Shown piece by piece: positions 78 through 22,056 of a stretch of DNA of 64,000 nt (position 1 is the stretch's first letter; every line of letters begins with the position of its first letter). Below the pieces are notes generated by a model. It worked only from the letters and a program-made list of their open reading frames with translations. It ran no database searches and was not told where the DNA came from. Origin of the DNA: an uncultured virus (IMG/VR IMGVR_UViG_2061766007_000176) (Duplodnaviria > Heunggongvirae > Uroviricota > Caudoviricetes); the IMG/VR virus record IMGVR_UViG_2061766007_000176. One strand, given 5' to 3'. The translations under genes and the position numbers were made by a program.

Positions 78-272
78 AGAAAGCCATCCTTTACGGGATG
101 GCACATCCGCACTTGAGGGACGTTTTCTTCAGCAGTTCGTGTCAGCGGTGCGGTTGCGATTCACTCGGTGGTGATTCGGACAGGGCCCTCCTCACCTCTG
201 AGGGTCTTACGTCGGCTACTTGTGCCTGTCGCCCCTCCGAGCGGTCTTGGGGGTTTTCCCCCCTTTGACACT
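78..272 (-). ncRNA. Putative small structured RNA
   Basis: Follows the 276-304 promoter; no RBS-linked ORF; ends in hairpin GCCATCC/GGATGGC plus a T-run (about 78-102). Confidence 0.45.
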
Positions 273-275
273 AAC

Positions 276-304
276 ATTATAACCCATTATAGATTATTTG
301 TCAA
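276..304 (-). promoter_or_regulatory. SigA/sigma70 consensus promoter (leftward)
   Basis: Reverse strand reads TTGACA-17nt-TATAAT; divergent from the promoter at 348-376. Confidence 0.85.
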
Positions 305-347
305 CCCCTTTTTTAAAAAAATTAAAAAAACTTTTTTGAAAAAACTG

Positions 348-376
348 TTGACAACCGATCCGGTTTGTGGTATTAT
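348..376 (+). promoter_or_regulatory. SigA consensus promoter
   Basis: TTGACA-17nt-TATTAT. Confidence 0.8.
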
Positions 377-517
377 AATCCTGCGAGAGGGAGAGAAACC
401 CCAACTCTCCCGAGGGACGCCCACCGCAGACAGGGGATCCAAGGGGCGCAAGCCTGGCGGTGGGAGTTCTCCCGAGAGCAAAGCGCCCAGACTTTGAAAA
501 AAAGTTTGGATGAACGC

Positions 518-546
518 TTGACAGATCCACCGGAAGGTGCTATAAT
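518..546 (+). promoter_or_regulatory. SigA consensus promoter with extended -10
   Basis: TTGACA-17nt-TATAAT with TG at -15/-14. Confidence 0.85.
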
Positions 547-549
547 AAG

Positions 550-812
550 ACCATCGAAAGGGGATGATTCCAAAGGGACGGGTGAGCGAGAGCGAGCAGG
601 TCGCGGTGGCTCGTAATCGCACAAATTGAAGCGACTGGGCGCGCCCACCGAGGCATGGGCGGTACTAAACCAGAGTCAGACTCTGGCGAGCGTACCAAGT
701 CCCACGAGGGAAGGGAGAGAGACCCGGAAATCGTGGGACGGGGTGGTAACCCCTCCAGACCCGAGGAAATGCGGGGAGCAATAGCCAAAACGGGCGCAAG
801 TGCGCCCATTTT
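550..812 (+). ncRNA. Putative structured RNA
   Basis: GC-rich hairpins (e.g. CCAGAGTC-A-GACTCTGG); terminator-like GGGCGCA/TGCGCCC followed by ATTTT; no convincing CDS. Confidence 0.45.
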
Positions 813-1047
813 CCACATCCGGGCCTGCGCGGGCCGGCTATATGTCATTCAAAATTCGCCATTACAGGCCCGATCTGGCCAATTCAACTGGCCGGCCGGC
901 CACACTTAATTCTGGCCCGTTAGAATGTGAATTACAGGCCAGAATTCAACCAGGCATCGGCCAGATAATAGGCCAGAATTATTAAGGCCGGCCACAGGCC
1001 AGGCCCGCTTTAATACGCTAAAGTATTAAAGTAGATAGATATTAAAT

Positions 1048-1200
1048 ATGCCCGCCCAATCGGACGGGTCTTACCGGTGCCACCCTCGGGCGACCTACCC
1101 TCAGTGGCTTGGGCGCTTGGTCTCGCCCGTTGAGTCCGCTTCGCGCCTGCCCGCGGACTCGGGGCTTGGGTTCCCACCGGAATCACCTCCCTTCGATGGT
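1048..1200 (-). ncRNA. Putative structured RNA
   Basis: Promoter TTGACA-17-TATACT at 1232-1204; consecutive hairpins GAGTCCGC/GCGGACTC, GGGCG/CGCCC, CCCGTCC/GGGCGGG. Confidence 0.45.
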
Positions 1201-1436
1201 TAAAGTATAGCACAGTCGCGCCGGTTTGTCAACAGTTTTTTTGAATTTTTTCAAAAAAAATTACGATCAAAATTTGCCTCTCCAGGCCCAAACTGGCCCG
1301 TCGGCATCGACCGGCCGGCCGTATGGTTCTGAAAATCGGCCTGTAGAGGCAAATTCCAACTGGCCGGCCTGCCGCCGAGTTAGTCTCGTCTAACTCTAAG
1401 GATGTAAAATTTGGTCTGACCAGATTTTACATTGTC

Positions 1437-1874
1437 TTATTTGGTCAGACCCTTGAGAACCTTCACGATGTCGGCGGGTTCGTAAGCGTTCTCACCCCAA
1501 GCCTTGCGGTTTCCTTCTTCATCATCGAACAGGATGTATCCGTTGGTAGCGGTTTTCTTATTCGTTCCGTAGGGAACAACCTTGATTTCGTTCCACTTGA
1601 CGGCGGGAAGGTGCTTGGCGAGCCAAGCGACCTTGGCTTTGGCGACCGCCTTGTGATAGGCGGGATTGTCAACCTTGGCGGTCCAAGTGATGACATTCAC
1701 GGTATAGCCGTTCTTCTGAACCTTGTTCAGCAGGCGGGCGATGTGGGCGAGATTTCCGATACCCTTAGCGATTTCGTAGGGGCGGGTCTCGCCGTTGCGG
1801 ATGGCGATCAGCCAATCAGCGACTCCGTAGAGGTCAGCGATTGTGCCATCCATGTCGAACCAGATACCCTTCAT
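1437..1874 (-). CDS. HAD-superfamily hydrolase (5'-nucleotidase-like)
   Basis: Motif I FDMDGT and C-terminal ILFDD; paralog of 8899-9348. Confidence 0.8.
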   Translation of the reverse strand: MKGIWFDMDGTIADLYGVADWLIAIRNGETRPYEIAKGIGNLAHIARLLNKVQKNGYTVNVITWTAKVDNPAYHKAVAKAKVAWLAKHLPAVKWNEIKVVPYGTNKKTATNGYILFDDEEGNRKAWGENAYEPADIVKVLKGLTK

Positions 1875-1963
1875 TCCTTAACTCCCCCTTTCTGATTATA
1901 TTATATACTATTGACACCGGATTACAATTGATTATTTGGGAAAATTTCATACCAGATTAACCA

Positions 1964-2467
1964 TCAGGCACACTGTGCTTCAAGCCAATTAATCATTTTA
2001 TTGGACGTTTTGCGAAAACGGATTGCGATATCAGTATGTTCACTATTATTACAAACCCTTGTAAACAGGGAAACAAACAGGCGAAACTCTTTTTTATTCA
2101 TTTGATATTCAGTAATCAATTCGGTTGCTCTATCCCACTCCATCCAAATAAACACTTTAGAAGGTGTATTTTTGAAGAAGGTTTTAATCTTATCTTCAGC
2201 CGAATTATACCGACCGCCAATACTCCGACCAAGACTTGCTTCAGAAGATTTAACGCTTGCCCTTTCGCTTTCAATATCAGAACCATTTTTCCAAGATGTC
2301 GCAGGATTAATATCAGTATAAATACCACGATAAGCCTTTGCGATACTTTCCAAAGTTTCACCCCTGTTTTTATATGCTTTCTGATAATTCGGACGATAAG
2401 GCGAATTGCGGTTAATTTCGGGTTCGTATGCGTAAGGCAGAGGATTTGTATAAGTTACCTTCTTCAT
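1964..2467 (-). CDS. Hypothetical protein, possibly a distant member of the 3684/5111/14187 family
   Basis: RBS GGGAG; NRGETLE...GSDI...SVK resembles NKGE.FE...GDI...QVK. Confidence 0.65.
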   Translation of the reverse strand: MKKVTYTNPLPYAYEPEINRNSPYRPNYQKAYKNRGETLESIAKAYRGIYTDINPATSWKNGSDIESERASVKSSEASLGRSIGGRYNSAEDKIKTFFKNTPSKVFIWMEWDRATELITEYQMNKKEFRLFVSLFTRVCNNSEHTDIAIRFRKTSNKMINWLEAQCA

Positions 2468-2739
2468 GGTCTTAACTCCCTTCCTTTGATAATACTATTA
2501 TAATAGCGGCATCTTCACAATACAATTGATAATATGGGAAAATTTCACACCAGATATGACATGAGCGGGCCGGCATAAAAAGGTCAAGAAAGGTCAAACG
2601 AAATTTGCCATTCTAAGCGTCTGAAAAATAATTCATCGTCTGGCCATACGATTATAATTCTTTCAGCGCCTTAGAATGGCAAATTTTGAATTTACCTTTT
2701 ATCAAATATAAATCCACTACTATATATGGTGGGAGACCC

Positions 2740-2961
2740 TTACAGGTCTCCCGCCATCTCGTAGTACCACTCAGCGAAAACCGGGTCGCGGTCGAGCAGT
2801 ACATCAAGCAGGTCGCCATCTTCGGGAGTCAGACCCTCAGCAGTGGCAATCTCGGTCATCACCGAATCAAACAGGTCAGAATCAAACAGTTCGTACCAAG
2901 CAAGGTCAAAGCGGCGGCAGTAGTCTTCGAAGAGTTCTTCCATCATTTCGCGAGTCATCAT
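2740..2961 (-). CDS. Small very acidic protein
   Basis: RBS AAAGGAAAG; D/E-rich 73 aa. Confidence 0.7.
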   Translation of the reverse strand: MMTREMMEELFEDYCRRFDLAWYELFDSDLFDSVMTEIATAEGLTPEDGDLLDVLLDRDPVFAEWYYEMAGDL

Positions 2962-3387
2962 TGTCTTTCTTTCCTTTCTTTGGGGTGGCTCTCTGTCCTC
3001 CCCGCACCATTATATTATCACAAACCGGCACAAAAAGCAACCCCTAAAATGAAATTTTTCTTTGTGAATTTTGGTAAAGTTTTCTACCAAATTATACATC
3101 ATTCAAAATTTGGCTCTACAGGCCCGATCTGGCCAGACCCATCGACCGGCCGGACGATGGATTAATTCCGGGCCTGCCTCAGAGGCAAATTTTGACGACC
3201 GGCCGGAAGGTCAAAGTCAGTCAAAGTCAAACTTTTCTGGCCCAAAGTTGTACGTACAACTGGCCAGGCCTGGCCCGCAGTTAGTCATGACTAACTTGTA
3301 CGTACAATTACTGCCGGCCCGGCGTGCTTTAGCACGCTAAAGTATTACATCGTTAAACCCACCTACATAATAGGTAGGCGGGTGAAA

Positions 3388-3455
3388 CAGGCGAGGTACC
3401 TCGGCAGGCGAGGTATCGGGGCAGCAGAGGTACCTCAGCAGGCGAGGTACTCTGG
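3388..3455 (+). repeat. Four tandem 17-bp repeats (consensus CAGGCGAGGTACCTCGG)
   Basis: Units read directly; bracketed by CTTTAGCACGCTAAAG palindromes at 3327-3342 and 3467-3482. Confidence 0.85.
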
Positions 3456-3683
3456 CTGCCGAGACACTTTAGCACGCTAAAGTGATAAAGCGTGAAAGTG
3501 TTACGAAAGTGTTACAACTATGTAACAAAATCGTCATACCGGCTGCCGAATGATTTAGACTTCCGTAACAGAAAAGCCGCAAAATCTTAACCGAATCTTA
3601 ACACTTTTGTAACAAAAACCCTTGACGGCTTCCGGCTTGCCATGCTATAATAAGCCATCGAAAGACGAAAGGGGATTTGACCG

Positions 3684-4154
3684 ATGACCACCTTCGACCG
3701 CGAAACCGCCCTGCGCCGGATGGCGCACGATTACAACGCGCTGAGCGCGTCCCATGTGTACGCTCTGGGCTTTGTCCACGCGCACGACCTGTATGTGGCT
3801 AAGCTGAGCTTCGCTGAGCTGAGCCGTTACTTCAAGCTCGACCGCGCGAGCCAGTCCCACGGCGGGATGCTGAAAATCCGCATCCGGATGACCGCCACCG
3901 CCAAAGCTGAGCTGAGCGCCAAAGCTGAGAAGCTCGGAGCTGAAACCCTGCTGACCCTCGACCCCAAGCACAACAAGGGCGAGAACTTCGAGCGGGAGCT
4001 GACCGAGCGGTGGACCGCTGAGACCTGGGTCAAGGACTCCATCCCCTTCAATGTGGCGGGTGACATTCGGGTGGATGGGATTGAGGTTCAGGTCAAGCTC
4101 GATGGGGCTGAGCTGACCAACGAAAAAATCCTCAGCAAGCTGATGGCTTGCTGA
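3684..4154 (+). CDS. Hypothetical protein, possible PD-(D/E)XK-like fold (family copy 1)
   Basis: KGENFERE...GDI...EVQVK; paralog of 5111 and 14187; own promoter TTGACG/TATAAT. Confidence 0.75.
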   Translation: MTTFDRETALRRMAHDYNALSASHVYALGFVHAHDLYVAKLSFAELSRYFKLDRASQSHGGMLKIRIRMTATAKAELSAKAEKLGAETLLTLDPKHNKGENFERELTERWTAETWVKDSIPFNVAGDIRVDGIEVQVKLDGAELTNEKILSKLMAC

Positions 4155-4222
4155 GGATGGGGTAAAAATACAACATCCCACGCAGTATAATGATTATGGA
4201 AAGAGAGAAAGGAGCTACTAAA

Positions 4223-4363
4223 ATGACTTTTCTGATTTGCTACCACGGCGAAAGCTACCACCTCGACATCGAGAGCCTCGACGAACTCCAGACCCTTGCT
4301 GACCGCTATGGTTGGGTCAAACTCGACGTCGACTTTAAGAACATGGTTATCACCATTCACTAA
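4223..4363 (+). CDS. Small hypothetical protein (46 aa)
   Basis: RBS AAAGGAG; MTFLICYHGESYHLD...; below the ORF-track cutoff. Confidence 0.65.
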   Translation: MTFLICYHGESYHLDIESLDELQTLADRYGWVKLDVDFKNMVITIH

Positions 4364-4375
4364 GGGGTGATAACC

Positions 4376-4459
4376 ATGACGACTACTGATCTCATCGCCC
4401 TGGCCCTGCCTGCCCTGTATATCATCGTGTGCTTAGTTGCCACCTTCAAACGGGGTTAA
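4376..4459 (+). CDS. Single-TM peptide (27 aa)
   Basis: RBS AAGGGG; MTTTDLIALALPALYIIVCLVATFKRG. Confidence 0.55.
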   Translation: MTTTDLIALALPALYIIVCLVATFKRG

Positions 4460-4614
4460 CGGGCCGGCCCAGGCGGCCAGTTAAAAAAATTGGCCGGCCT
4501 ATACAGGCCGGCCCGAGATTTAATAAAATTGTAACAATTTTATACTTGAAATTGTAACAACTCTTTGCTATAATAAGAGTGTCGAAAGGGACGAAAGAAA
4601 GGAAGGAAACCAAA

Positions 4615-4947
4615 ATGACTAAGACCATCGCAATCGCCACCGCCGTGACCATCGCCATTATCCTCGCTTGCTCCTGTGCTATCGCCGAAGTTCCGCAGGT
4701 GGATCGGCACACCATGCACTGCCAGGGCATGTATCCTCGGCTCGCCATCATCACCAAGCTGGATTACGAGCTGGATATCGTAACCGTAACTGACGCAGCT
4801 GGGTTCGATTGGCAGTTCGACTGCTGTGATGACTGGGTTATGGGCGACTATGTTACCATGATGATGTATGACAGCGAGACCCCCTACGAAATTGAGGACG
4901 ATGTAATAGTCCTCGCCTTCTGGGGCGGTTGGACCGCAAAAAATTAA
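4615..4947 (+). CDS. Secreted or membrane-anchored hypothetical protein
   Basis: RBS AAGGAAGG; N-terminal hydrophobic signal-like segment. Confidence 0.7.
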   Translation: MTKTIAIATAVTIAIILACSCAIAEVPQVDRHTMHCQGMYPRLAIITKLDYELDIVTVTDAAGFDWQFDCCDDWVMGDYVTMMMYDSETPYEIEDDVIVLAFWGGWTAKN

Positions 4948-5110
4948 CCTTCGGGGGGGGGGGNNNNNNNNNNNNNNNNNNNNNNNNNNNNNCTGGCCGG
5001 CCCGCAAATGTTACGAAAGTGTTACGATTAGTTCATAAATTGTTAACTTGACGGATGTACCGGATAGGTGTATAATTAAGGCACAGAAAGGGAAAGGAAG
5101 GTACTCAAGA

Positions 5111-5557
5111 ATGACTCGCAACGAAATGATCGACCGCTACAACGCTCTCTCCGCCGCCACTGCTTACATCGTTGGCTTCGTCCTCAACGGACTCCTGTAC
5201 TACACCATGTCCGCCCACATTGCGGATCAGTTCCTCAAGTTTGACCACATGGCTTCCAAACGTGGCGGTTGGGCAAAGATCCGTGTTCGGCTCTCTTCCG
5301 CAGATCGCAAGGCTCTTGTGGAGTGCGGACAGGCGGTGCTGATCGGCACTGCGGATCTCCTCACCGATGCGAAGTACAACAAGGGCGAGTGCTTCGAACG
5401 GGTAATCACCGAATCCCTCACGGGCGAACAGTGGGTGAAGGACTCCGTTCCGTTCAATGTCGCAGGAGATATCACCCTCAACGGCGAACAAGTACAGATC
5501 AAGTTTGACGGGGCGGAACTCACCAACGAAAAACTCCTCATGCGGATCTCCGCATGA
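5111..5557 (+). CDS. Hypothetical protein (family copy 2)
   Basis: MTRNEMI...; near-identical to 14187-14630. Confidence 0.8.
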   Translation: MTRNEMIDRYNALSAATAYIVGFVLNGLLYYTMSAHIADQFLKFDHMASKRGGWAKIRVRLSSADRKALVECGQAVLIGTADLLTDAKYNKGECFERVITESLTGEQWVKDSVPFNVAGDITLNGEQVQIKFDGAELTNEKLLMRISA

Positions 5558-5626
5558 GGATGCTGAAAAAATGTCGCATCCTATTTGATACTATATATAC
5601 AGAAAGAGGAAAGGAAGGTACTTAAG

Positions 5627-5821
5627 ATGGGTTACTTCGATGATTGGTTTGAGGGCGAGATGGAGTTGGACATTGACGAACTGTCTTACGGCGACAAGAT
5701 CCCCGATCCCTTTGACGGTGACACCGCGATCGACTCTTCCTTTGAGGAAGATTACTTCGACAACATCGACCTCTATCGGTTCAACACCGACCCGCACATG
5801 CGGATGTATAGGGATGAATAA
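5627..5821 (+). CDS. Small very acidic protein
   Basis: RBS AAGGAAGG; MGYFDDWFEGEMELDIDE... Confidence 0.7.
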   Translation: MGYFDDWFEGEMELDIDELSYGDKIPDPFDGDTAIDSSFEEDYFDNIDLYRFNTDPHMRMYRDE

Positions 5822-5964
5822 TTATTCATCCCGCCCGCGGGCCGGCCAGCCGAATTGTTACGAAACTGTAACAAATAGTTAATAAAAACTTAACAAATTT
5901 ATACTTGATTTTGTAACAAATTTGCGGTATAATACTTACAGAAAGAGGAAAGGAAGGTAACCCA

Positions 5965-6126
5965 ATGATGAACGTTAAGAATCTCCCCACCACCCACAAA
6001 GAATTTGTTGTCGCCCGCGCGGTCGAAGGTGACCTCTGGTACTGGGGTTCTTGGGATTCCGAAGAGACCGCCCACACTGTCGCCAATGACATCAACGGCA
6101 TTGTGGTCTATGAAGAGGAGGAGTAA
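5965..6126 (+). CDS. Small hypothetical protein (53 aa)
   Basis: Promoter plus RBS; MMNVKNLPTTHKEFVVARAVEGDLWYWGSW... Confidence 0.65.
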   Translation: MMNVKNLPTTHKEFVVARAVEGDLWYWGSWDSEETAHTVANDINGIVVYEEEE

Positions 6127-6129
6127 GCC

Positions 6130-6285
6130 ATGACTAACAACCAACTGTGTAACATCCTCGGAGTTATAGGTTGCGTAATTGCCTTCTTCGGTATGGGGTT
6201 AGTATTCTTCGGAATAACCTCTGCTGCTTGGGCAGTTGCCTTCGGTATTCTACTTAGTGGCATCGGGTTAGTTAATTACGACTAA
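6130..6285 (+). CDS. Small two-TM membrane protein
   Basis: RBS GGAGGAG; hydrophobic 51 aa. Confidence 0.6.
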   Translation: MTNNQLCNILGVIGCVIAFFGMGLVFFGITSAAWAVAFGILLSGIGLVNYD

Positions 6286-6392
6286 CCCAGCGGGCCGGCC
6301 CGCCAAAATTGTAATAAAATTGTAACAAATTTATACTTGATTTCGTAACAACTTTCTGCTATAATTAAACCATCGAAAGGGAGGAATGAAGA

Positions 6393-6542
6393 ATGACCCG
6401 CACCTACAAGAAGTCCGCAAGCTATCCGCACCCCACCAACTACCCGCACCACAACCGCCACACCAACTCCCGCGTCCTGCGGAAGCGCATGGATCGGCGT
6501 GACCGCCACCGCCTCAACCGCTTCTCTATGGAGGCGGACTAA
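6393..6542 (+). CDS. Basic His/Arg-rich peptide (copy 1)
   Basis: MTRTYKKSASYPHPTNYPHHNRH...; paralog at 14943-15095 with synonymous changes. Confidence 0.75.
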   Translation: MTRTYKKSASYPHPTNYPHHNRHTNSRVLRKRMDRRDRHRLNRFSMEAD

Positions 6543-6647
6543 GGCGGATGCGAGCTGGGAGCTGGCAAAAAAATTGTGAGCTGGGCTTGACAAACTGAGC
6601 AAGCCGTGATATAATGACACTGTAAGAAAGAGAAGGAGGATCTCAAG

Positions 6648-6785
6648 ATGGATTACGAACTGTACGATGGTGACTACGAATACGAAGATGGCGACTACCT
6701 CGATGACGAACCCGATTACGATTGGGGTTACAACGAGGACGAGGGTTTCGATCCCTACGCAGGTTGCTACACTTGGGACTGCTGA
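6648..6785 (+). CDS. Extremely acidic D/E/Y-rich peptide (copy 1)
   Basis: RBS AAGGAGG; ends GFDPYAGCYTWDC; paralog at 15196-15354. Confidence 0.75.
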   Translation: MDYELYDGDYEYEDGDYLDDEPDYDWGYNEDEGFDPYAGCYTWDC

Positions 6786-6794
6786 GAAGGAGGA

Positions 6795-7611: not shown

Positions 7612-7969
7612 CCTCGCGCCGGCCCGCTGATTTAACAAAATCTTAACACTTTTGACCTTGTTTTGTAACATATTTATGGTATAATAATCATGTCGAAAGG
7701 GAAGGGCGAGCCGAGAGGCGGACTCGAACGAGAAACGAAAAAAAGTTTCAGAAACCCCTTGACAAACCCCACAAAGTGTGGTACAATAAAAATGTCGGAA
7801 GGGAAGAGCGACTTCCGAAAGAACAGTGGGCAACGGACTCGCTCCCCTCGCAGTCGCAAAGCGATGTTGCCCAACTGAACGAAAAAAATGCTTGACATTC
7901 CCCACAAAATGTGGTAGAATGAATATGAAAAGAGGAAGGACACCTCACAAACCAGAAAGGCAAAAGGCT

Positions 7970-8305: not shown

Positions 8306-8449
8306 TGCCTTGCGACCCTCGGGGGGGGGGGGGNNNNNNNNNNNNNNNNNNNNNNCACTAACTCGCGGGCCGGCCCGCCATGTATTATTTGGGAAAAAAC
8401 TTTGCCATATTACTAATTGTTTTTCGCCAAATATCTGATATAATATAAT

Positions 8450-8790
8450 TGTTCCGAGGGAGTAAGGAAACTACCAAGGTGAGTAGGGTGCGCAACCGAA
8501 AGCGTTGGTCTTGGGTGTAAGCGGAGTAGTGAAACCGAGGAAAAGTGGTACTGACGAGTGCCCAATCAAATCCTTGCGAGGATGGGTGGGTAGGTGGTGT
8601 GTGTTGTTACACACTGTGTAGCAAGGTAGTGTTAAACCAAAGCACTATAATCTCAGGTGACTAAACTTCAAGAAGAAGTTACACAGGGATAGACCCTCTG
8701 GAGGTGAACTCCGAACGGAAGTCAGGATGTGTGTAATTCCAACACAGGAATGACTCAGGCAAGCGCCCCGCCTGTTAAGAAAGCGGGCGC
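8450..8790 (+). ncRNA. Putative ~340-nt structured RNA
   Basis: TGATATAAT -10 upstream; many hairpins; no CDS; terminal hairpin CCGC/GCGG. Confidence 0.5.
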
Positions 8791-8898
8791 ATCTTCGGGC
8801 CGGCCCGTAATTTAACACTTTTGTAACAAATTTGTGCTTGACTTTTAACAATTTCTTTGCTATAATAATTATGGAAAGAGGAAAGGAGAGTACGAACA

Positions 8899-9348: not shown

Positions 9349-9636
9349 AATCCGCCTTATGGGGGGGGAGGGTACCCTCCCCTCTTTTTTCGCATTTTTT
9401 CGGGGAGTGGNNNNNNNNNNNNNNNNNNNNNNNNNNNNNNNNNNNNNNNNNNNNNNNNNNNNNNNNNNNNNNNNNNNNNNNNNNTTTCAAAAAATTTTCT
9501 TGACAAAATTCAAAATTTATGTTATAATATATATGAAGTTGAGGGAGAGAAGATAAAAATTTTCCTCACCAAACCCCTTGACAACCACCCCTTGAAGTGC
9601 TATAATGTGTGTGTAAAGAGAAAGGAGAGATGCCCA

Positions 9637-10473: not shown

Positions 10474-11292
10474 TTATAACAGCGAATAACTCCAAATAAA
10501 CCCATAGGCTTTGGCTTGTGCCGAAGCCTTTTTTGCGAGATATTCTTTCTAATATCCAGTTTGTCGTGATGCTTCTGCAACACTAGGATATACTTTAACC
10601 AACTAATTATCTAAAGTATATTGATATAGTTCTTTATGAAAACCACGCTTGGCGCCTTTGGGTGCGATAGTCTCCAACTATTCTATAGACCATTGAAAGC
10701 CGCCAGCAGATTGTCGCTCACCCTATAAACAATGTGTTATATTACTATGTGGTATGCCGGTCGCTCTTTCAGCATCAGATAAACTTTTATATGTAGCAAT
10801 ATACTTACCATTTAAATCATATTGTGATATAGATTTCTATAAATACTCGCCAGCGGATCTTTGTATTCTTTCTTCCGCAGTTGTGCCAAAAGCATTTAAA
10901 GCATTACGTATTGCGGTTTCTCCATATCCAGTAATGTCGTGTATTTTCTACATATTATGACCAGCATACCATAAATCATATACTAATTGTCTGTCAGTAG
11001 TAATAGTACCTTCACCACCGTAAGTCTCATTATATCCATTCTTATAAGTATCATACAACTATATATAATACTTTTCCTTTTCTTTTGCTTCTTCAAATGT
11101 TAAACCATCTTCAAGTATTTCGGAAGTAAAATAATTAAAGCCATATTTTTCTATAGCTTTTCCAAAAGCAAATCCATCATTTACATATTTAATACCATTC
11201 TTGCCGGCCCGAAAATAGAGAGAATTACAAGTAATTCCAACATATTTTTTATTATTTTCTCCTGTATAACAGTAGACTTTCCAATCATTCAT
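10474..11292 (-). CDS. GIY-YIG homing endonuclease with NUMOD1-like repeats (TAG=Gln, 272 aa)
   Basis: KVYCY...KYVGIT, NGYNETYGG, QYDLNGKYIATYKS; 7 in-frame TAG, ends TAA; AT-rich insertion. Confidence 0.85.
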
Positions 11293-12821: not shown

Positions 12822-13095
12822 CTCCAACTTTGGGCCGGCCCGCTCAATTGTATACAGTATACTTTGAAAATAATGCTTGACTTTAAGTAAAAATTCTGAT
12901 ATACTATATATGTCGAGAGGGAGAGGATACCGAGTGCCGAACTCCGATCAGCATGATCGCTCCCACCTTCTGACCGAAACTGATTAAAATCGGAGAAAAA
13001 AGTTTCGGAAACCTCTTGACAAAAACCAAAATCCATGATATACTAAATACGTAAAAAGGAGAAGGAAACTCCACAAACCAGAAAGGATAACCACT

Positions 13096-13428: not shown

Positions 13429-14186
13429 TCCTCTAAAGGGATAGGGTTCGCCCTATCGCCCTCCCTGCCTGTATGGGAGGGCTTTCCTTATTTCATTTTA
13501 CTTTAGCGCTTTAGCGTAATGAAGCGGGCCGGCACATGACAATCCTAAAACCGCACCGGCCCGCGATTGTATACAGTATTCTTCAAATTTAGGTATTGAC
13601 TTTTAGTAAAATTTCTGATATACTATAATTGTTCCAAGGGGAGAGGATAGTGCGAGCAGTATTCTCCTTGCTAACGCTCACTGACGAGTGAGATTCAGAA
13701 CTAAAAAATAAAAAAAGTTCTGAAAAAACCCTTGACAACAAGCAAATCCTGTGCTATAATAAGGATGTAAGGAGAGAAGAGCGATGGAGTTCCGTTAGGG
13801 CAACAACACTGTCACGGGGTGAGCCACTCCACCGNNNNNNNNNNGGGAAGCAAGGTGATAACTTGAGCGGAGTAAACGAAGGTCAACAGACCGTGGCGGA
13901 AACGCAACAAAGGGAAACCTCCCCTTGGGGGAAAACCCCTTGACATTAAGCACAAAATGTGCTATAATAGGGGTAAGAGAGAAGAGCGGTGGAGAACCGT
14001 TATGGCACAAAGTTGTTCGGGACGAGCCACTTCACCGCTCTTCAAAAAACACTTGACATTAAGCACAAAATGTGCTATAATGTATATGAAAAGAGGAGAA
14101 GNNNNNNNNNNGAAAAAAGTGTTGACAAACCGCACCGGATGTGATAATATATAGTCACAGAGAGGAAGAAAGGAAGGTAACCCACC

Positions 14187-15095: not shown

Positions 15096-15195
15096 TGCGA
15101 GCTGGGAGCTAGCAAAAAAATTGCGAGCTGGGGCTTGACAAACTACGCAAGCTATGATATAATCAACCTGTAAGAAAGAGAAGGAGGATTTGAAG

Positions 15196-15354
15196 ATGGA
15201 TATGCACGAATACGAGGACAACTACTGGGACGATTACGATGCGTCCATGCCCGATCCCGAGGATGATTACCCCGAGGATGACTACTACGAGGATTGGGAT
15301 AACCTCGACATGGGCTTTGACCCCTACATGGGTTGTTACTCTGACGACTGCTAA
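15196..15354 (+). CDS. Extremely acidic peptide (copy 2)
   Basis: Ends GFDPYMGCYSDDC. Confidence 0.75.
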   Translation: MDMHEYEDNYWDDYDASMPDPEDDYPEDDYYEDWDNLDMGFDPYMGCYSDDC

Positions 15355-15367
15355 GGAGGAATGAATT

Positions 15368-15632
15368 ATGACAACTGTTATCTGCAACTGCCCGCTGTGC
15401 GGAAGGGTTTCCGAGGTCAACTGCGATGAGGTGGCATATTTTAAGTATGTAACNNNNNNNNNNNNNNNNNNNNNNNNNNNNNNNNNNNNNNNNNNNNNNN
15501 NNNNNNNNNNNNNNNNNNNNNNNNNNNNNNTTCTTTGTTGAGGAAGACGATGACGGGTGCGATGGCGAATGCGACGTCTGTTGCGATTTTGATTGCCCCT
15601 CCAATGCCTCACTCTTTACACCGCAGGAGTGA
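15368..15632 (+). CDS. Cys-rich zinc-binding protein (copy 2, spans an N gap)
   Basis: Both ends match 6795-7079. Confidence 0.7.
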
Positions 15633-15732
15633 GCGGGNNNNNNNNNNAACCCTTGACAACCACCCCAAAATCTGATATAATAAATACGAACAAAGGGAAC
15701 GACACCCTACAAACGAGAAAGGATTCACCACC

Positions 15733-16062
15733 ATGAAGAAAGCCACTTTCGAAGCCATCAAGACCGCTCTGACCAACTTCGGCTATACCGATACTGATGT
15801 CCTCGCCGAACTCGACAAGGAAATCAACAAGGGTGCCGAGCAGAAGGCGAAGAACGCCGAAGCCTACGATGCCATCCATGACATCGTGATGGGTGCCCTG
15901 ACCTCTGCTCCTGCGACTGTCGCGGAGATTTGGGAAGCCATCGAGAATGAAGTTCCCGAAGGCATCACCAAGGGCAAGGTTCAGTATGCCCTGACCCACC
16001 TCTGGGGCGATGAAATCGTCAAGGTGGAAGGCAAGCCGAATGGCTATCGGAAAGCGGTCTAA
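15733..16062 (+). CDS. Putative winged-helix protein (copy 3)
   Basis: TKGKVQYALTHLW...EGKPNGY. Confidence 0.75.
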   Translation: MKKATFEAIKTALTNFGYTDTDVLAELDKEINKGAEQKAKNAEAYDAIHDIVMGALTSAPATVAEIWEAIENEVPEGITKGKVQYALTHLWGDEIVKVEGKPNGYRKAV

Positions 16063-16134
16063 TCCGCTTTCCCCTCACCACGAGGGTTTCCGAGGGTCTT
16101 TCAGTGTGGTTAAACAACATAAGCCCTCCTTTAT

Positions 16135-16237
16135 GGGACGAAATGATGACAGTGGCAAGTCATCCGCCGAAGCGAAAGCAATAGCGATAGGTGTGCAAAA
16201 TGCCTATGGATGGGTTCAATTCCCACTCGTTCCACCA
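16135..16237 (+). ncRNA. tRNA-like RNA with alanine identity (G3.U70, A73, encoded CCA) and a non-canonical core
   Basis: Acceptor GGGACGA/TCGTTCC plus ACCA; T-arm GGG-TTCAATT-CCC; 6-bp D-like stem; two central arms with no canonical anticodon loop. Confidence 0.65.
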
Positions 16238-16238
16238 T

Positions 16239-16311
16239 ACCCCACTAGCTTAATTGGTAGAGCAACTGACTCTTAATCAGTAGGTTCAGGGTTCAAGTCC
16301 CTGGTGGAGTA
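16239..16311 (+). tRNA. tRNA-Lys(CTT)
   Basis: Cloverleaf: ACTGA-CTCTTAA-TCAGT anticodon arm, CAGGG-TTCAAGT-CCCTG T arm; one acceptor mismatch; CCA not encoded. Confidence 0.9.
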
Positions 16312-16527
16312 CACATCCCCTATTCCCTTCTTTCCTTTCTAGCCCTGCCTTACGGCAGGGCGCTTTCTTTATTCACATACTTTAATCCGCTAAAGCGGGC
16401 CGGTATATTCGTGCCGGCCCGCCAGTTGTACGTACAAATTTTCAAAATTTTAATTTCAAAATTTACTTGACAAAAATCAAATTTTAGATTATACTATATA
16501 TGTAATAAGAAAGGAATGGTGATTGAG

Positions 16528-16875
16528 ATGCCGAAACTGACTAAAACCGCAATCGACAAGGAACTCCGTACCCGTGTGCTTGATAGCATCTACAACGCAA
16601 AAGATGACCTCGACTTTCATGCTATTAATGAGCGTCAGTTGGGTCTTTTGCTAACTGACCTTAATGACCATCAGCGGTATGTCCGCATCAGCGTAATCGT
16701 TGCTGAGGAACGGGAAGATATCTCTGCCGAAGAACTGATGGCGATGGAGTGCGAAGCCTTCAATGCTAAACAGGCAGAAAAAGCCGAAAAGGCAAAGAAG
16801 AAAGAAGCCAAAATCGCCAAGGATAAGGCTCGGCGTGAAGCCGAAGCCAAAGCAAAGGAAGGCGAACAGGCATGA
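16528..16875 (+). CDS. Hypothetical protein, related to 9637-10113
   Basis: MPKLTKTA... and a KKEAKIAKD tail. Confidence 0.75.
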   Translation: MPKLTKTAIDKELRTRVLDSIYNAKDDLDFHAINERQLGLLLTDLNDHQRYVRISVIVAEEREDISAEELMAMECEAFNAKQAEKAEKAKKKEAKIAKDKARREAEAKAKEGEQA

Positions 16876-17299
16876 AAAAGTTCTGGGTTCACTTCGATGG
16901 TTACTGTGTAGTTGAAGGAGAGAACGAAGAACAAGCCGAATGGAGCTTCTTTGAGCATATTTACCCACCTGTAGATGAACCAGTATATAATGAAGTCTAT
17001 ACCATTACCAAGATTGAAGAAGTGGAGGAACAGAAATAATGCGTATCGGCAAGATCATTTTTGACACTGATAACATGACCTATGAAGAGGTCGACCAGTT
17101 GGTACAGGAACTGCGGGAAGTCCGCAAGCGGAAGGGCGAGGCAAGGGATTGTAAAATCCGTATGCGGAATATGGTTGAGTCATCCCTTGATCAGGGCTTC
17201 CGCTATATCAACCGCTATACGGGCGAACTGTTCAACGCAGACGAATGGTTTGTCTATGACGAAAGACAGAATTGTACTCACGGCGAAGAGGTAGATTAA
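16872..17299 (+). CDS. Two small hypothetical proteins (16872-17039; 17039-17299)
   Basis: Translationally coupled ATGA/TAATG overlaps. Confidence 0.65.
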
Positions 17300-17394
17300 T
17301 CTACCTCTTTTGTCCGTACAACTCGCGCCGGCGCAAGTTATGCTTGACTAACTCATTCATATTTGATATAATAATAGCGAAAGGAAGGGATAAT

Positions 17395-17811
17395 ATGGAT
17401 AAGATTAAACTGATTCGTGACTTCGCAAGCCTTGTCGCAGGTGAGCGTGTAATTATTCCTCGCAAGCGTGATTGTTGGAGTTTAAGCATGGCAGACGCAA
17501 AACCGCGTCTGATTCTCCCGCCCGACCCCGACCAAAATGATGAAGAAGATAAAGCCTTTCGCAAAGACTTTGTTCAGCGTTGCCTTATGGCAAGGGGATT
17601 TGCCAATGTAACTCTTTCTATCCTTCATGAAATCGGTCATCATTTCAATCGTGAAGCATATATATTCAGCGATGTGAATGAAGATGAATATGAATCCCAT
17701 TTCACCCTCCCGTATGAAATAGTAGCAACCGATTGGGCGATTGCGTGGCTTCAAGACCCTAAACACCGTAAACAGGCTAAAGCCTTTGAAAGACAATACT
17801 TTCAAGGCTAA
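17395..17811 (+). CDS. Zinc metallopeptidase-like protein
   Basis: HExxH motif in SILHEIGHH. Confidence 0.65.
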   Translation: MDKIKLIRDFASLVAGERVIIPRKRDCWSLSMADAKPRLILPPDPDQNDEEDKAFRKDFVQRCLMARGFANVTLSILHEIGHHFNREAYIFSDVNEDEYESHFTLPYEIVATDWAIAWLQDPKHRKQAKAFERQYFQG

Positions 17812-17906
17812 CGCGCCGGCCAGAATTAACAGAATTGTAATAATTTTGTAGTTGACTTTTAACATTTATTCTGCTATAATAAGAGTGTGAAAGGGAGGAA
17901 TGAAGT

Positions 17907-19246
17907 ATGAAGAAAGTTAAAGTGAAGTCCAATGTTGAAATCTTTATGGGTCAGCGGAAGTCTTGGGGTAATGTAAATCCCGTGACCAAAGTGATTCCCG
18001 ACAAGCGGTTTAAGAAACCGAAGTACAAGGGAAAGGAATGGGATTAATGAAAGTGATTCCTCGTTATAAACTTAATTGGGTAACTGAAGAAGAACCTGAC
18101 GAAGAATGGCTTCCTGGCGAACAGATTCCTCACTTCTGTTATTGTAATAACAAGACAGAATTGGAAAATCGTCATCAGCAAGCCGTGACCGAAGGTGGTT
18201 ATAATTTCTCTGTTGATGTGTGGTATTGGAATCAATATATGGCTTCTAATATTGGGAGGGATTGGGAATGAAATTTATACAAAAAACTACCTATGACCTT
18301 GGAAGCCTTGACTACTATCGTGATGAACTCGGATGGAATGTTGATTCCATCGAAGATGTGGTCGAACGCATTAAGGATTGGAATGATGAGGAATTGCGTA
18401 CACTTTTGGGATATGCTACTGACTATGAATGTTGGGCAGAAGAAACCGAAGTATAAAGGAAAGGAGTGGGACTAATGAACCTTAATTTCGCATTGTTCAA
18501 TCTGAATGTGGCTTTGCCGTGGTGGGCATACATACTGATTATCGCATCGCCCTTTATTCTTTCGGCAATTATTTCCCTTGTAGTTTACTTTATCAACCGC
18601 TATTTTTAAGGAGGTAACCGCTATGATGAACTATTGCCCCGTATGTAAATCGTCTCTCATTTGGATATCCAGCGATGAGGATACCAATGGCAACGAACTG
18701 TTTTACACCAGTACTTCCGAGTGTACAGAATGTGGTCTGGTAGTACATGAAACCGAAACTTACACCCGCACCAAGGTCGAAGCAACTTTCGAATTTAAGG
18801 AGGAAGACTAATGGATATTTATCCGAAGTGCCCTTATTGTAAATGCGACATTGACTACCATGATAAACTCAGTGATGACTATGACGATGCTTACTATTTT
18901 GTAAGTTGGTCTGGTTTTTGCCCTCGGTGTCAGCGCACCTTCTCGTTTTCTGAAACATTTAAACTTGTAGAAAGGCGGTTCCTTGATGAAAAAGATTCTG
19001 ATTAAACGTCTCGTATACTCCGATGGTCAGGGTAATACCCTCATCGGCGCAGAGGAATATAGCGGTCATCTCGACGACTTCAATATTCTTGGGGCCATCC
19101 ATGAAGTAGGTAAAACCGCGTGGATCGGGCAGTCCCTTTGGGCACTCCATCGCGGTGTTCCTGCGTATCGTATCACCGTAGGTAAATTCTATCAGTATCA
19201 GAAGCGGTGGTATGAAAACGTTTTTGATGCGCTTCGGCGCATCTAA
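17907..19246 (+). CDS. Operon of seven small hypothetical proteins (17907-18047, 18047-18271, 18268-18456, 18475-18609, 18623-18811, 18811-19005, 18986-19246)
   Basis: RBS-linked, overlapping start/stop codons; two carry CxxC pairs, one is a TM peptide. Confidence 0.65.
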
Positions 19247-19346
19247 AACGGGCCGGCCGCAATTTAATACTTTCTTAACAATTTTCCTATTGACTTTTAC
19301 CATAAATCTGTTATAATATATATAGAAAAGGAAAGGAGATTGCCCC

Positions 19347-19821
19347 ATGAACTACGATTTCGACCTTAACCAAGCCATTGAAGATTTCCACGCGATGTGT
19401 GAGTGGTACGGCGACTACCCTCTGAAATACGAACATTACATTGAATATGCGGTACACGCACAACTCGATTACTTCCCCACCGATTTCCGCTTTCAGGATG
19501 CGGTTCGGCGGTTGAAACTCGCCCTTGGTGGGTATCAGTTGAAAATGGAGTTAGATTAATATGGAAAAAGTAAAATCTTTCTTCAGTATTGAAATGCCCT
19601 ACCGCTTTGAATGGAATGACTTGCGGTGCGGGATTACCATCCTCAACGTAATACTCATTATGTTATTTGGACTCCAAGTATCGTGGTTCGGTCTTGCGGT
19701 CGCAGTATTCGGCGTGTGTAAAGACTTCTCACAGCATCGACATATCAATGATATACTCATGCATATGTCAAGCGTGGTCCTTAACATATACTTCCTTTCC
19801 CTTCTCTATAGCGGGACTTGA
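19347..19821 (+). CDS. Two hypothetical proteins (19347-19559; membrane protein 19561-19821)
   Basis: Own promoter and RBS; terminator hairpin AGCGGGAC/GTCCCGCT. Confidence 0.7.
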
Positions 19822-20057
19822 CGTCCCGCTTATTTTCTGGCCGGCCATACTCATACCGGCCTGCCCAACGCCTTATACTCCCCCACGCTAACATAATACC
19901 ATAAATCCCGCAAGATGTCAAGCCCCTACAAATATTAAATTTCTGTTACAATTTCATTACAATTCTATTACATCGGCGTCGCCTTATACCACAAGGCGTG
20001 ACGCCTATTTTGTTACCCCTATATACCACGTACTGGCCCGCGCCTTATACGCACTGG

Positions 20058-20320
20058 CCAGCTGGAAAAGCTGGATGAGCTGGGAGCTGGAAAGGCACCG
20101 GCCAGCTGGATACTGTATACAAGCTGCGACTGGCCAGCTGGGACACCACCCAGGAGCTGGGCGAGCTGGGACAAGCTGGAACTCCGTCGACGAGCTGGGA
20201 AAGAGCTCGAAAATTTTCCAATTTATCAAGCTTCGAAAGCTGGGTCCCACGAATCATCCACACCAATTTTTGGCTTGCCATAAGCTGCGATATCTGGCTT
20301 AAAATCGTGAGCAGCTGGAT
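20058..20320 (+). repeat. Strand-polarised AGCTGG cluster (about 12 copies)
   Basis: Counted by eye in a non-coding stretch. Confidence 0.85.
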
Positions 20321-20623
20321 TGGCCGCAAGCCGAAGTTCCGTCGTCGTGAAAATTCGGAGCAAATTCTGGAAAACCCAAAAAATTTTTTCAAAAATTTTT
20401 TCTCAAATATTTGACTTCAAGTAAAATTTCGTGTATAATAAATGTGTAAGAGGGAGAGAGATATAAAATCTCCTACCAAAAGTTTGAGTTTAAGAAACTA
20501 ATACTTGACTCAAAATGAAATTTAGTGTATAATATGTATGTAAGAGGGAGAGATCCCCTACAGAATAAATTTGTGCGGTTAGCGGTCCGCCGTAAATCAA
20601 AATCGTGTGTAAAAGGAGTACAT

Positions 20624-21109
20624 ATGAATAAGAATGATGTCCTGTCCACTATCCTCGCTCTGGAAGGTGCCACCATGTGCCGCCAGAACAAGACCAACTT
20701 TATTGCCATCCCTACTGAAGATGGTGTTGTGAAGGTTACTATTGGTACCGCTCTGGCGGAAGATACCAAGAACCACAAGGCTTTCAACTTTGAAGCTGCT
20801 AAAGCTGACTACAAGGCTTGGGAAGCTGAAGGTGCCCTGCGTGCGGCCGAGCGCGCTAACAAGCCTGTAAAGGTTAAGGGTCCTAACCCCGAAGCTCAGG
20901 CCCGTCGGGACGAGCTGGATGCCAAGGTAATGGCTCTGCCTTCCTTCACTGATTGCACCGCGACCGACATTATGAATGCTCTGGCTGGCCAGATCGCTGA
21001 GAATGTCACCGTCATGGCAGTTGGTTCCAGCGCTATGCGTCTGGTTGAAAAGGGTGTTCTCACCATGACCCTGGATGAGAAGAAAAAGAAGCACTACACG
21101 AAGGCTTAA
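20624..21109 (+). CDS. Hypothetical protein with C-terminal wHTH-like segment
   Basis: RBS AAAGGAG; TATDIM...AMRLVEKGVL; terminator GGGCGG-GAAA-CCGCCC plus T-run. Confidence 0.75.
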   Translation: MNKNDVLSTILALEGATMCRQNKTNFIAIPTEDGVVKVTIGTALAEDTKNHKAFNFEAAKADYKAWEAEGALRAAERANKPVKVKGPNPEAQARRDELDAKVMALPSFTDCTATDIMNALAGQIAENVTVMAVGSSAMRLVEKGVLTMTLDEKKKKHYTKA

Positions 21110-22056
21110 TCCTTCGCGGGCGGGAAACCGCCCTTCTTTTTTTTACCTGCGAATTGTATACAGTATACACCAAAATTTTCTAATATCTGACTTTAATAAA
21201 CTTAATATTTGACTTTTTTTGAAATTTCTGTTATAATATATATGTAAGGAGGGGAAAAGAGAAAAAAGGCTAACCACCTCACCCACTCTGAACCGTGCCC
21301 TTCCTTACATCTTGGGGCGTCCCTCGTAACGTGTTGGTTGCGAGGGACATTTTTTATGCTTTTCTAAAATTGTATACAGTATACTGTATACAATCGCAGC
21401 GCCGCGAAAAAATTTTTTTGTAATACCCTATCCCCTTTTTCAGACGCATTTGATCTTTTCACCAATTGCGCTTATTCTGGGGTATTAGCTGTACTAGACG
21501 CATTTTCCTTAGTTCCACTTCCTGCTGTTCTTGCTACATTAACCTGATCATTATACCAGAATAAGTTACCTTAAGCTGGATAAAATATATATGTACCTAA
21601 GCTGGTCGCAAGCCATTTCCATGTCATCTCCCCCCTAGCAGACGCATATTCTATATATATAATAAACGCGTCTGTTCCGGGGTATTTTTTTAACGAACCA
21701 TTACATTGTAATGATTTTTTTGGTACAATCAAATATTTGACAAGCTGGCCTACTATATGTTAAAATATAAAAAAAGAAAAAATAAATTTAAATAAAANNN
21801 NNNNNNNNNNNNNNNNNNNNNNNNNNNTATATTTTATTAAAAAAAATACTTGACAAGAGTCAAATTTTGGGCGCACCTACCTAAAACATAGCCCCACGCC
21901 CCATTTTTTCAACGAAATGCTACTCGTAATACTTTGTTCCCTCTATTTCCAACACCACACCCGTTTTACTACTACTTTTATCCTTCTCTTTTACTAACTA
22001 CAATGTATTTGTTATGTAAGATTGAATATACCAATTATTTCTAGGAGTGAAAATTT

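Follow-up and report, generated by a model that had tools for sequence, protein, structure and literature searches.

What is made from strong promoters that have no gene behind them? The question is raised by an uncultured member of the Caudoviricetes (IMG/VR record IMGVR_UViG_2061766007_000176), of which a stretch of 64,000 nt, hereafter the window, was analysed. We take the first 21.4 kb of the window to be the early block, serving host takeover, of a large rumen phage that is TAG-recoded and has a Gram-positive-type host. Between positions 78 and 21352, a first-pass annotation had listed at least 13 intervals in which a near-consensus promoter is followed by 50-340 nt of mostly GC-rich, hairpin-forming sequence and no open reading frame (ORF) linked to a ribosome-binding site (RBS), and had proposed either an early-expressed small-RNA arsenal or promoter sinks for host RNA polymerase. 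We find that the ORF-less units, numbered here U1 to U16 along the window, are of two kinds, namely, stand-alone RNA cassettes and short spacers of tandem-promoter arrays. Among the former, U1, U3, U4 and U7 are real RNA genes of families that are not in Rfam.

Promoter-led units without genes

Sigma-70-like promoter sites are in excess throughout this part of the window: positions 1-20000 hold 73, as against 28.1 +/- 6.1 in 50 shuffles, 13 of the 73 being perfect (TTGACA-17-TATAAT, 12/12), and positions 20000-22500 hold 21, as against 5.9 +/- 2.7 in shuffles. A separate scan of positions 1-22500 gave 41 sites matching the consensus at 10 or more of 12 positions, 36 on the plus strand and five on the minus strand. 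Eleven of the 13 listed intervals lie directly behind such a site, and the remaining two, 7690-7740 and 8450-8790, behind a TG-extended -10 element with a weak -35. No ORF of at least 25 aa linked to a Shine-Dalgarno (SD) sequence starts inside ten of the 13, and none of the 13 contains a conserved RBS-linked ORF. Twelve intervals were folded (13766-13930, which holds N, was left out), and ten of these have a GC content of at least 0.50, the exceptions being 13630-13700 (0.41) and 20445-20500 (0.32). The z-score of the minimum free energy (MFE) was -2 or lower in 10 of 15 folded stretches, with a range from -1.0 to -5.1. The description of the intervals as promoter-led, ORF-less, mostly GC-rich and hairpin-forming thus holds, and three ORF-less units (9535-9577, 10479-10535 and 14088-14121) can be added to it.

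Stand-alone RNA units

In U1, U3, U4, U7 and U16 the place of an ORF in the cassette is taken by a folded, GC-rich RNA about 105-344 nt long, with a terminator or a GC hairpin at its end. Each of these units fills a whole cassette slot, with a 3′ boundary of the GGCCGGCC type, as behind protein genes. They have their own promoter and no conserved ORF, and the terminators of U1, U4 and U16 were called by the terminator scan. U1, of the F1 family (83..268, minus strand, about 186 nt), was delimited by the promoter and terminator scans, with a 12/12 promoter at 304->276 and a called terminator at 102->83; its GC content is 0.60 and its MFE z-score -3.5. The 3′ module of U1 is kept in loci L007, L031 and L038, and its outer stem CCGCAC/GUGCGG is GGGAUC/GAUCCC in four relatives, an exchange seen in few sequences. 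U3 (553..812, plus strand, about 260 nt) follows a 12/12 promoter (518-546), contains a conserved pseudoknotted core at 553-740 and ends in a GC hairpin (793-808) and AUUUU, which the terminator scan did not call; nine homologs are available. U4 (1050..1197, minus strand, about 148 nt) has an 11/12 promoter (1232->1204), a called terminator (1068->1051) and six distinct homologs.

U7 (8449..8792, plus strand) is a composite RNA of 344 nt, consisting of module M1 (8449-8564), a variable middle and module M3 (8682-8792). Its promoter has a TG-extended -10 element at 8436-8444, and its 3′ end is a GC hairpin not called by the terminator scan. U16 (21244..21352, plus strand, about 105 nt) stands at the border of the early and late regions, behind an 11/12 promoter with TG (21209-21237). 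Its 5′ GUAAGGAGGGG pairs with CCCUUCCUUAC, the MFE z-score is -4.4, and the terminator at 21319-21348 has 12 pairs followed by AUUUUUU. The sole homolog of U16 is a 32-nt fragment at the cut end of locus L032.

Relatives and compensatory changes

Related loci were collected by protein-anchored scans, 16 from IMG/VR and 73 from metagenomes. When the units were compared by blastn with 99 loci, homologs were found for 13 of the 16; U9 and U15 had none, and U16 had the cut piece described above. A search of IMG/VR returned four contigs with the M1 core and one genuine additional variant of U3, whereas the other of the two hits to the U3 core (L100) was spurious. GenBank phages gave no DNA match to window positions 1-8000, two conserved 22-23-mers had no exact hit in 185,579 species genomes, and a DNA search of five large relatives with window 60-1240 matched only promoter and upstream-promoter (UP) regions. 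At the gathering threshold of Rfam 15, the library of which includes antitoxin RNA and CRISPR-repeat families, no unit was matched, nor was any at E<=5 over positions 1-22000 or E<=10 over 60-1240; in eight related loci Rfam recognised tRNAs only. In a limited search of the literature on recoded phages with early-gene RNAs and on structured phage RNAs from the rumen, these families are not described.

The first-pass annotation had held that a lack of structural conservation would speak against its small RNAs. Conservation of structure across relatives was found in U3, U4 and M3, the 3′ module of U7, in plain MAFFT alignments of 6-10 sequences that were not fitted to a model. For the U3 core (alignment A3, 10 sequences, 47 pairs), 94.7% of positions are paired, as against 81.5% in shuffled and 27-40% in slid controls; the corresponding values are 97.2%, 89.9% and 30-52% for U4 (A4, seven sequences, 31 pairs) and 94.0%, 86.1% and 29-50% for M3 (six sequences, 25 pairs). 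Pairs changed on both sides number 23 of 47 in the U3 core, 8 of 31 in U4 and 10 of 25 in M3, and none of 500 shuffles reached these values in any of the three, although with related phages and small alignments the shuffle controls overstate significance, and the figures are counts, not probabilities.

RNAalifold predicted 35 pairs for U3, of which 14 are compensatory. In the hand-drawn pseudoknot of U3, the loop of helix 40-45/57-62 pairs with alignment columns 87-92 (47-52/87-92); one position of this helix shows GC, UA and AU, and pair 47-92 is GU in all 10 sequences. The G-U pairs lie on the promoter strand, which fits an RNA made from that strand.

Spacers of tandem-promoter arrays

The second kind of unit is the spacer between successive promoters. 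Eight to eleven units are of this kind, and because no terminator precedes the next promoter they are predicted to be transcribed as 5′ extensions, that is, as the 5′ parts of longer downstream transcripts. The small-RNA arsenal proposed for the whole set therefore stands in part: it includes at least four promoter-to-terminator RNA genes with relatives, whereas eight to eleven units are tandem-promoter spacers. Arrays of tandem early promoters are found at U5/U6, U8, U10, U11-U14 and U15. Across 100 sources we counted 357 tandem-promoter spacers, 284 of them ORF-less.

U2 (383..497, plus strand) is a 115-nt folded spacer upstream of U3, between promoters 348 (348-376, 11/12) and 518. Its single distinct homolog is at 1848-1940 of L007, a contig identical with L034, and compared with this homolog two stems are exchanged, GGGAGAG/CUCUCCC to GGAGGGG/CCCCUCC and CCCACCGC/GCGGUGGG to CCCACAG/CUGUGGG. 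U5 (7691..7757) and U6 (7794..7890), both on the plus strand, are the first and second spacers of the array before the winged-helix gene 7970-8305. U5 follows a TG-extended -10 element (7677-7685), has no terminator before promoter 7759 and gave 10 blastn high-scoring segment pairs (HSPs) in relatives (MFE z-score -1.9); U6 lies between promoters 7759-7787 (11/12) and 7892-7920 and gave eight (z-score -2.8). U8 (9535..9577, plus strand) is a 43-nt spacer upstream of gene 9637-10113, flanked by two 12/12 promoters (9500 and 9578), with five HSPs from three distinct contigs and a z-score of -2.6. Upstream of the winged-helix paralog 13096-13428, U10 (12912..13015, plus strand) lies between promoters 12877 (10/12) and 13016 (11/12) and has four homologs (z-score -1.6).

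Four consecutive plus-strand spacers precede gene 14187-14630. The first, U11 (13629..13731, promoter 13596-13624, 10/12), forms three hairpins, one with a C-UGACGA-G hexaloop that is kept on stems CUCAC/GUGAG, CCUAC/GUAGG and CCCGC/GCGGG. It gave 21 HSPs; its identity across six loci is 89-98%, as against 70-93% for the genes beside it (70-83% in 14 of 15 gene comparisons). U12 (13767..13939, with 10 masked N at 13835-13844) follows a 12/12 promoter (13732-13760) and is a paralog of U13; its 5′ half is 95-98% identical in L067, L072, L030 and L035 and its 3′ half 88% identical in L002. U13 (13975..14052), behind promoter 13940-13968 (12/12), is a long hairpin with a z-score of -5.1 and five homologs. 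The very short U14 (14088..14121, with 10 masked N) is flanked by promoters 14053-14081 (12/12) and 14122-14150 (10/12). Near the end of the early block, U15 (20446..20504, plus strand) is enclosed by two 11/12 promoters, 20411 and 20505, ahead of gene 20624-21109; with a GC content of 0.32 and no homolog in the 99 loci it is the weakest unit. In U9 (10479..10535, plus strand), a 12/12 promoter (10444-10472) is followed immediately by a called terminator (10506-10529), with no shared leader and no blastn homolog in the 99 loci; U9 is probably an orphan.

Conserved stretches were also seen outside the units. The leader at 20540-20623, downstream of U15, is the conserved 5′ untranslated region (UTR) of gene 20624-21109 (10 loci), and a conserved 3′ element (16076-16138, 16 HSPs) lies behind the winged-helix paralog 15733-16062. 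The 111-aa winged-helix gene family has at least two promoter-like sites in 112 of 142 distinct upstream regions. The model of the 111-aa protein (predicted local distance difference test score 93.8) consists of a long helix and a winged helix and gave weak winged-helix matches to solved structures (best E 0.025); with these weak matches and no link to the RNAs, the fold was discarded as a clue to their function.

Shared leaders, recurring loops and shuffled modules

Leaders of the TCGAAAGGG, GTAAGAGGGAG and TTGTTCCAAGGG types are real and head both RNA and coding units, as the first-pass annotation had stated. At the sequence level, leaders GAAAGGGGA, GAAGGGAGGUGAU and GUAAGGAGGGG and the hairpin UGUUCC-AAGA-GGAACA have the make-up of 5′ stabilisers, with an SD-like polypurine run or a hairpin in about the first 20 nt that serves no start codon. 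The TTGTTCC leader was found in 125 distinct units from the 100 sources, of which 61 run into an ORF and 64 are ORF-less. In coding units this leader folds on itself into the above hairpin, and in some of the ORF-less units it is paired with a complementary sequence at the 3′ side, a variable insert lying between the two.

The same loops are found on stems of differing sequence. The UGACGA hexaloop, closed by C-G on stems of at least 4 bp, was found in 39 distinct contexts, in which its stem has no fewer than 11 variants, and the 17 distinct members of M1 have the hairpin GAAAAGUGGURC-UGACGA-GUGCCC in common. Loops GAAGGCGCCAAAU, GUAAUCCCAAC and GACAGGUAAGACCG behave in the same way, GACAGGUAAGACCG often within a terminator hairpin, and the GUAAGACC loop is located in terminator hairpins. 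A hammerhead reading of CUGACGAG was rejected, as its flanks pair together as a hairpin and no Rfam ribozyme was matched; theta ribozymes (PMC10879173) are tRNA-adjacent and do not account for the units.

The RNA modules are shuffled among related phages, as in the cassettes of T4-type phages discussed below. In L082 and L095, M3 occurs alone and immediately follows the stop of a gene; in L101, all that is present of U3 is its pseudoknot core, joined to a different leader; and some relatives insert a 230-nt module that is absent from the window. The order of genes and RNAs varies among close relatives. Recombination between cassettes may underlie these differences in order and the recombined modules. 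The inserted module is a conserved RNA of about 230 nt (L003 2631-3030, L007 6700-6976, L041 4790-5000, L080 6440-6660) that begins with GCAGUAAGAAGCCUGCG, contains GGCAUCGGUCAACAAUUUCCGUCCGAUGAAGUGCC, is joined to M1 or to a bare leader in relatives and has no Rfam match.

Between the cassettes, GGCCGGCC occurs in 18 copies from 28 to 19839, all intergenic and all in the first 20 kb of the window, with none later. Each copy immediately follows a stop codon or an RNA unit, and many form the palindrome GCGGGCCGGCCCGC; the motif is absent from a more distant 181-kb relative. Several other repeats were noted. TGTAACAA and its variants (3521-14894; 13 of 14 copies in the early block) flank or invade promoters in an operator-like manner, and palindromes TGTATACA and TGTACGTACA and dyads of the CTTTAG..CTAAAG type occupy other intergenic spots. 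GAGCTGG occurs 16 times in the window, as against 4.07 +/- 1.9 expected, with clusters just upstream of promoters 6587 (6552-6584) and 15135 (15080-15131) and in the non-coding stretch 20060-20320 (20077-20198). A 17-nt repeat, CAGGCGAGGTACCTCGG, is present in 3.7 copies at 3388-3450, and the ORF-free stretches 820-1050, 1240-1436 and 3100-3350 hold dense short GGCC-rich repeats around divergent early promoters; both kinds of repeat are kept in L008. Runs of polyG lie at gene ends (4953-4992, 8322-8355 and 9361-9382); two run into masked N, and one is a G8...C-rich hairpin with a T tract. These runs resemble the polyG/polyC stem-loops outlined for the T4-type cassettes.

Genomic setting

The early block is made up of repeated cassettes. 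In each, a palindrome or stem-loop rich in GC, an AT-rich UP region and a consensus promoter of the host type are combined with either an SD-like leader rich in purines or a 5′ hairpin. In the first 21.4 kb the GC content is 37-54%, the genes are small and the standard code applies; from about 21.4 kb on, the GC content is 30-39%. In the region 21400-64000 genes are long only when TAG is read as a sense codon, one frame of 2834 aa containing 21 TAG, and its products include tail-fibre repeats, an NlpC/P60+SH3 lysin, SpoIID, a holin and GIY-YIG homing endonucleases. Recoding is avoided in the early block, and the TAG-recoded late region is adjoined by a tRNA with a CUA anticodon and a long insertion (63367-63459), a further tRNA (63534-63604) and a cow-rumen-4 RNA (62928-62990; Rfam, 80.5 bits). 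The identification of the early block is based on this contrast and on two 5′-deoxyribonucleotidase homologs encoded in it; 5′-deoxyribonucleotidase is an enzyme of the T5 pre-early region. A complete relative of 181 kb has a single promoter-dense block of raised GC content, about 25 kb long. DNA of the phage or its close kin was found in 20 bovine or gut metagenome runs from 10 studies; none of the 20 is an RNA run, the query being 4.9 kb long, so that holders of a small RNA may be missed.

Two GIY-YIG/NUMOD homing endonuclease genes were found, at 10563-11292 (minus strand) and 26470-27162 (plus strand). The former is AT-rich and TAG-recoded within the standard-code early block and abuts the orphan unit U9. 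The early block also contains a duplicated gene block (5048-8305 and 14122-16062) with paralogs in the same order, encoding proteins of 148 aa, 49 aa (arginine/histidine-rich), 45 aa (acidic), 92 aa (cysteine-rich) and 111 aa (winged-helix).

Just 5′ of tRNA-Lys(CUU) (16239-16312) lies a tRNA-like element of about 100 nt (16138-16237, plus strand), with a 7-bp acceptor stem GGGACGA/UCGUUCC that includes a G3:U70 wobble, a T arm and an encoded ACCA, and no normal anticodon arm. The element recurs in L077 and L084, where its acceptor stem covaries, and all three copies have G3:U70. The Rfam model of transfer-messenger RNA (tmRNA) matched it with 18.1 bits (E 9.4e-4; gathering score 47), and ARAGORN made no call. 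The element could be a mini tmRNA-like RNA or, by the G3:U70 rule, a tRNA-Ala-like one.

Possible roles of the RNAs

Taken together, these observations suggest a scenario with stable early RNAs that bind proteins in trans and spacer modules that act within 5′ UTRs, and to this package as a whole we give an even chance. On entry of the DNA, host RNA polymerase would fire from the cassette promoters; that expression is early we infer from their being of the host type. The shared leader would shield the 5′ end from 5′-to-3′ decay, by a ribosomal subunit or a hairpin, so that the stand-alone RNAs could accumulate as stable molecules. These may bind host or phage proteins in trans through the invariant loops UGACGA, GAAGGCGCCAAAU, GUAAUCCCAAC and GACAGGUAAGACCG on covarying stems and might serve as sponges or as scaffolds of ribonucleoproteins during takeover. 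Through the spacer modules, the mRNAs of a few early genes with heavy expression would acquire binding or processing sites of the same kind, and recombination between the repeated promoter cassettes would shuffle RNA modules and genes alike. Protein binding in trans is far less certain than the existence of the structured RNAs themselves.

Several observations, besides the caution on shuffle controls given above, weigh against this scenario. Transcript ends, abundance and processing are all predictions from sequence, and the invariant loops match no motif that we can name. U3 and U4 have no constant protein neighbour. The alignments of M1 and U11 are heterogeneous: RNAalifold, run on MAFFT alignments, predicted 13 pairs with one compensatory for M1 and four pairs for U11, and because the automatic consensus is poor, the case for these two is built on hairpins drawn by eye and on motif scans. 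The high identity of U11 could stem from recent transfer of the cassette and not from selection. The structures of U2, U15 and U16 come from single-sequence folding, because U15 and U16 have no usable homologs and U2 has one, and the MFE z-score is only -1.0 for U2 and -1.2 for U15. Finally, the stem that closes the 5′ and 3′ ends has a z-score below -2 in 17% of 231 spacers; it was dropped as a general rule for spacers, since it applies to a minority.

Alternatively, all units might act only in cis, as pieces of UTRs, terminators or insulators, or RNase sites that tune neighbouring early mRNAs, with no free RNA. We consider this possible, though we lean clearly against it. The lack of terminators in the eight to eleven spacer units agrees with it, and ordinary tandem early promoters with non-coding spacers are known from T7 (A1, A2 and A3). 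Moreover, M3 behind the gene stops of L082 and L095 is a 3′ UTR with a terminator there, the GUAAGACC loop is inside terminator hairpins, and the leader at 20540-20623 is a conserved 5′ UTR. Against an exclusively cis-acting role, U1, U3, U4 and U16 each combine a promoter with a terminator of their own and have no ORF next to them on the same strand, U3 moves among different neighbours, and a core that spans about 190 nt, forms a pseudoknot and contains 23 covarying pairs goes far beyond what a terminator or a stabiliser needs.

It is improbable that the units are by-products of recombination, orphan promoters and leader remnants kept at most to soak up host RNA polymerase. The make-up of the cassettes does match that of the promoter early stem-loop (PeSL) cassettes, as outlined in PMC2839356, and gene order differs among close relatives. 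U9 amounts to a promoter and a terminator next to a homing endonuclease gene that has been inserted, both U14 and U15 are short and AT-richer, U15 lacks homologs, and the ORF-less spacers are as numerous as stated above. Remnants would be expected to decay, whereas compensatory changes have preserved the pairs of U3, U4 and M3; U11 is better conserved than most adjoining genes, and the same loops recur on different stems. The pure promoter sink of the first-pass annotation does not explain U1, U3, U4 and U7, because these four are RNA genes with relatives, with covariation in U3, U4 and M3.

Just as doubtful are mimics that disarm host defence, namely, repeats like those of type III antitoxins, mimics of CRISPR repeats acting as RNA anti-CRISPRs, or decoys for RNA-sensing systems. 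The units are numerous, strongly promoted, presumably early and fast-shuffling, as would be typical of counter-defence loci, and they are restricted to phages, as the two 22-23-mers without hits indicate. Nothing ties any unit to the decoy, antitoxin or anti-CRISPR roles that had been suggested: no antitoxin RNA or CRISPR-repeat family of Rfam was matched, and an exact-pattern search of bacterial genomes revealed no copied host sequence. The tandem direct repeats of about 34-36 nt beside an endoribonuclease toxin gene that mark ToxI-like antitoxins were not found; no unit contains tandem repeats, and Pfam revealed no toxin family in the 34 early proteins scanned, the PADLOC library not having been searched. 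Complementarity of the units to the rest of the 64-kb window extends over only 13-14 nt, a chance-level match, and antisense regulation of phage genes was rejected as well.

That the units encode very small or leaderless proteins is highly improbable: U4 (1048-1200, minus strand; SD and GTG with a 55-aa frame) and its six relatives do keep the 5′ SD and [AG]TG at ideal spacing (7/7), U5, U6 and U10 open with an ATG close to the predicted start of transcription, a leaderless 62-aa frame of interval 7690 crosses the next promoter, and U13 (interval 13970-14045) has a 50-aa SD-linked frame from 14002, yet the frames of the U4 family (3, 25, 25, 40, 52, 55 and 61 aa) shift between members, the leader ATG, including that of interval 7690, gives way to GTG or CCA in other units that share the leader, the ATG of U13 is missing in its paralog U12 (13767), and substitutions in U3 and U4 follow pairing, not codons.

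Under the scenario of stable early RNAs and spacer modules, a tenth of the early region, and clade-wide about half of one leader class (64 of 125 units), is predicted to make RNA and not protein; early regions of phages are usually read as lists of small takeover proteins. Several of these RNAs are new structures that are clearly under selection. More tentatively, and with the balance against it, recoded rumen phages may run part of their takeover with a shuffled library of small folded RNAs, fired in the first minutes, that titrate RNases, defence sensors, translation factors or other proteins of the host. This library would comprise at least four unrecorded families, one with a pseudoknotted core, and the tRNA-like element at 16138-16237 would belong to the same toolkit. 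Should the RNAs bind host factors, they would offer natural RNA inhibitors in compact form and add a new layer to the conflict between rumen phages and their hosts. The modular design, with hairpins on a scaffold of shared leader and closing stems around variable inserts, is of interest to RNA engineering, and even on an ordinary reading several candidate RNA families are new, and their alignments could be curated as they stand.

Comparison with known systems

Covarying, GC-rich RNAs of ornate structure, associated with phages or prophages, often from the rumen and without an assigned role, are known from metagenomes as the GOLLD, ROOL and cow-rumen motifs, as far as outlined in Weinberg et al. 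(2017, PMC5737381) and 10.1101/2024.12.08.627333. The units described here resemble them as covarying GC-rich RNAs in a phage, and cow-rumen-4 itself is present in the window. In contrast, the RNAs of the early block are smaller (about 105-344 nt), match none of the models, are modular and reside in early promoter cassettes.

According to the outline in PMC3997798, even long RNAs that are not translated are stabilised in Bacilli by a strong SD or by occlusion of the 5′ end. The stabilisers described there (STAB-SD, the SP82 polypurine and the aprE 5′ stem-loop) place an SD-like polypurine or a hairpin at the extreme 5′ end, also of untranslated RNA. The likeness of our leaders to them is at the sequence level only.

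The early regions of T7 (A1-A3), SPO1 and T5 offer parallels to the arrays, in that several very strong host-type promoters follow one another ahead of the first early genes, with no terminators between them. T5 also has small takeover genes that include 5′-deoxyribonucleotidase. The present arrays differ in that their spacers hold conserved hairpin modules and in that they precede several paralogous genes, not a single site at the genome end.

A further likeness is to the PeSL cassettes of T4-type phages, which consist of an AT-rich stretch, a sigma-70-like early promoter, a G/C stem-loop and an SD and, as outlined by Arbiol et al. (2010, PMC2839356), have been shown to drive recombination as repeated cassettes. 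The same composite was found here: both are repeated intergenic elements in variable early regions, with neighbouring cassettes shuffled between close relatives. The counterparts in the window are the GGCCGGCC palindromes, polyG...polyC hairpins, UP-like A/T tracts, consensus promoters and purine leaders. The type of host is Gram-positive-like in our case, and whereas PeSLs flank ORFan protein genes, many of the cassettes described here carry long covarying RNAs.

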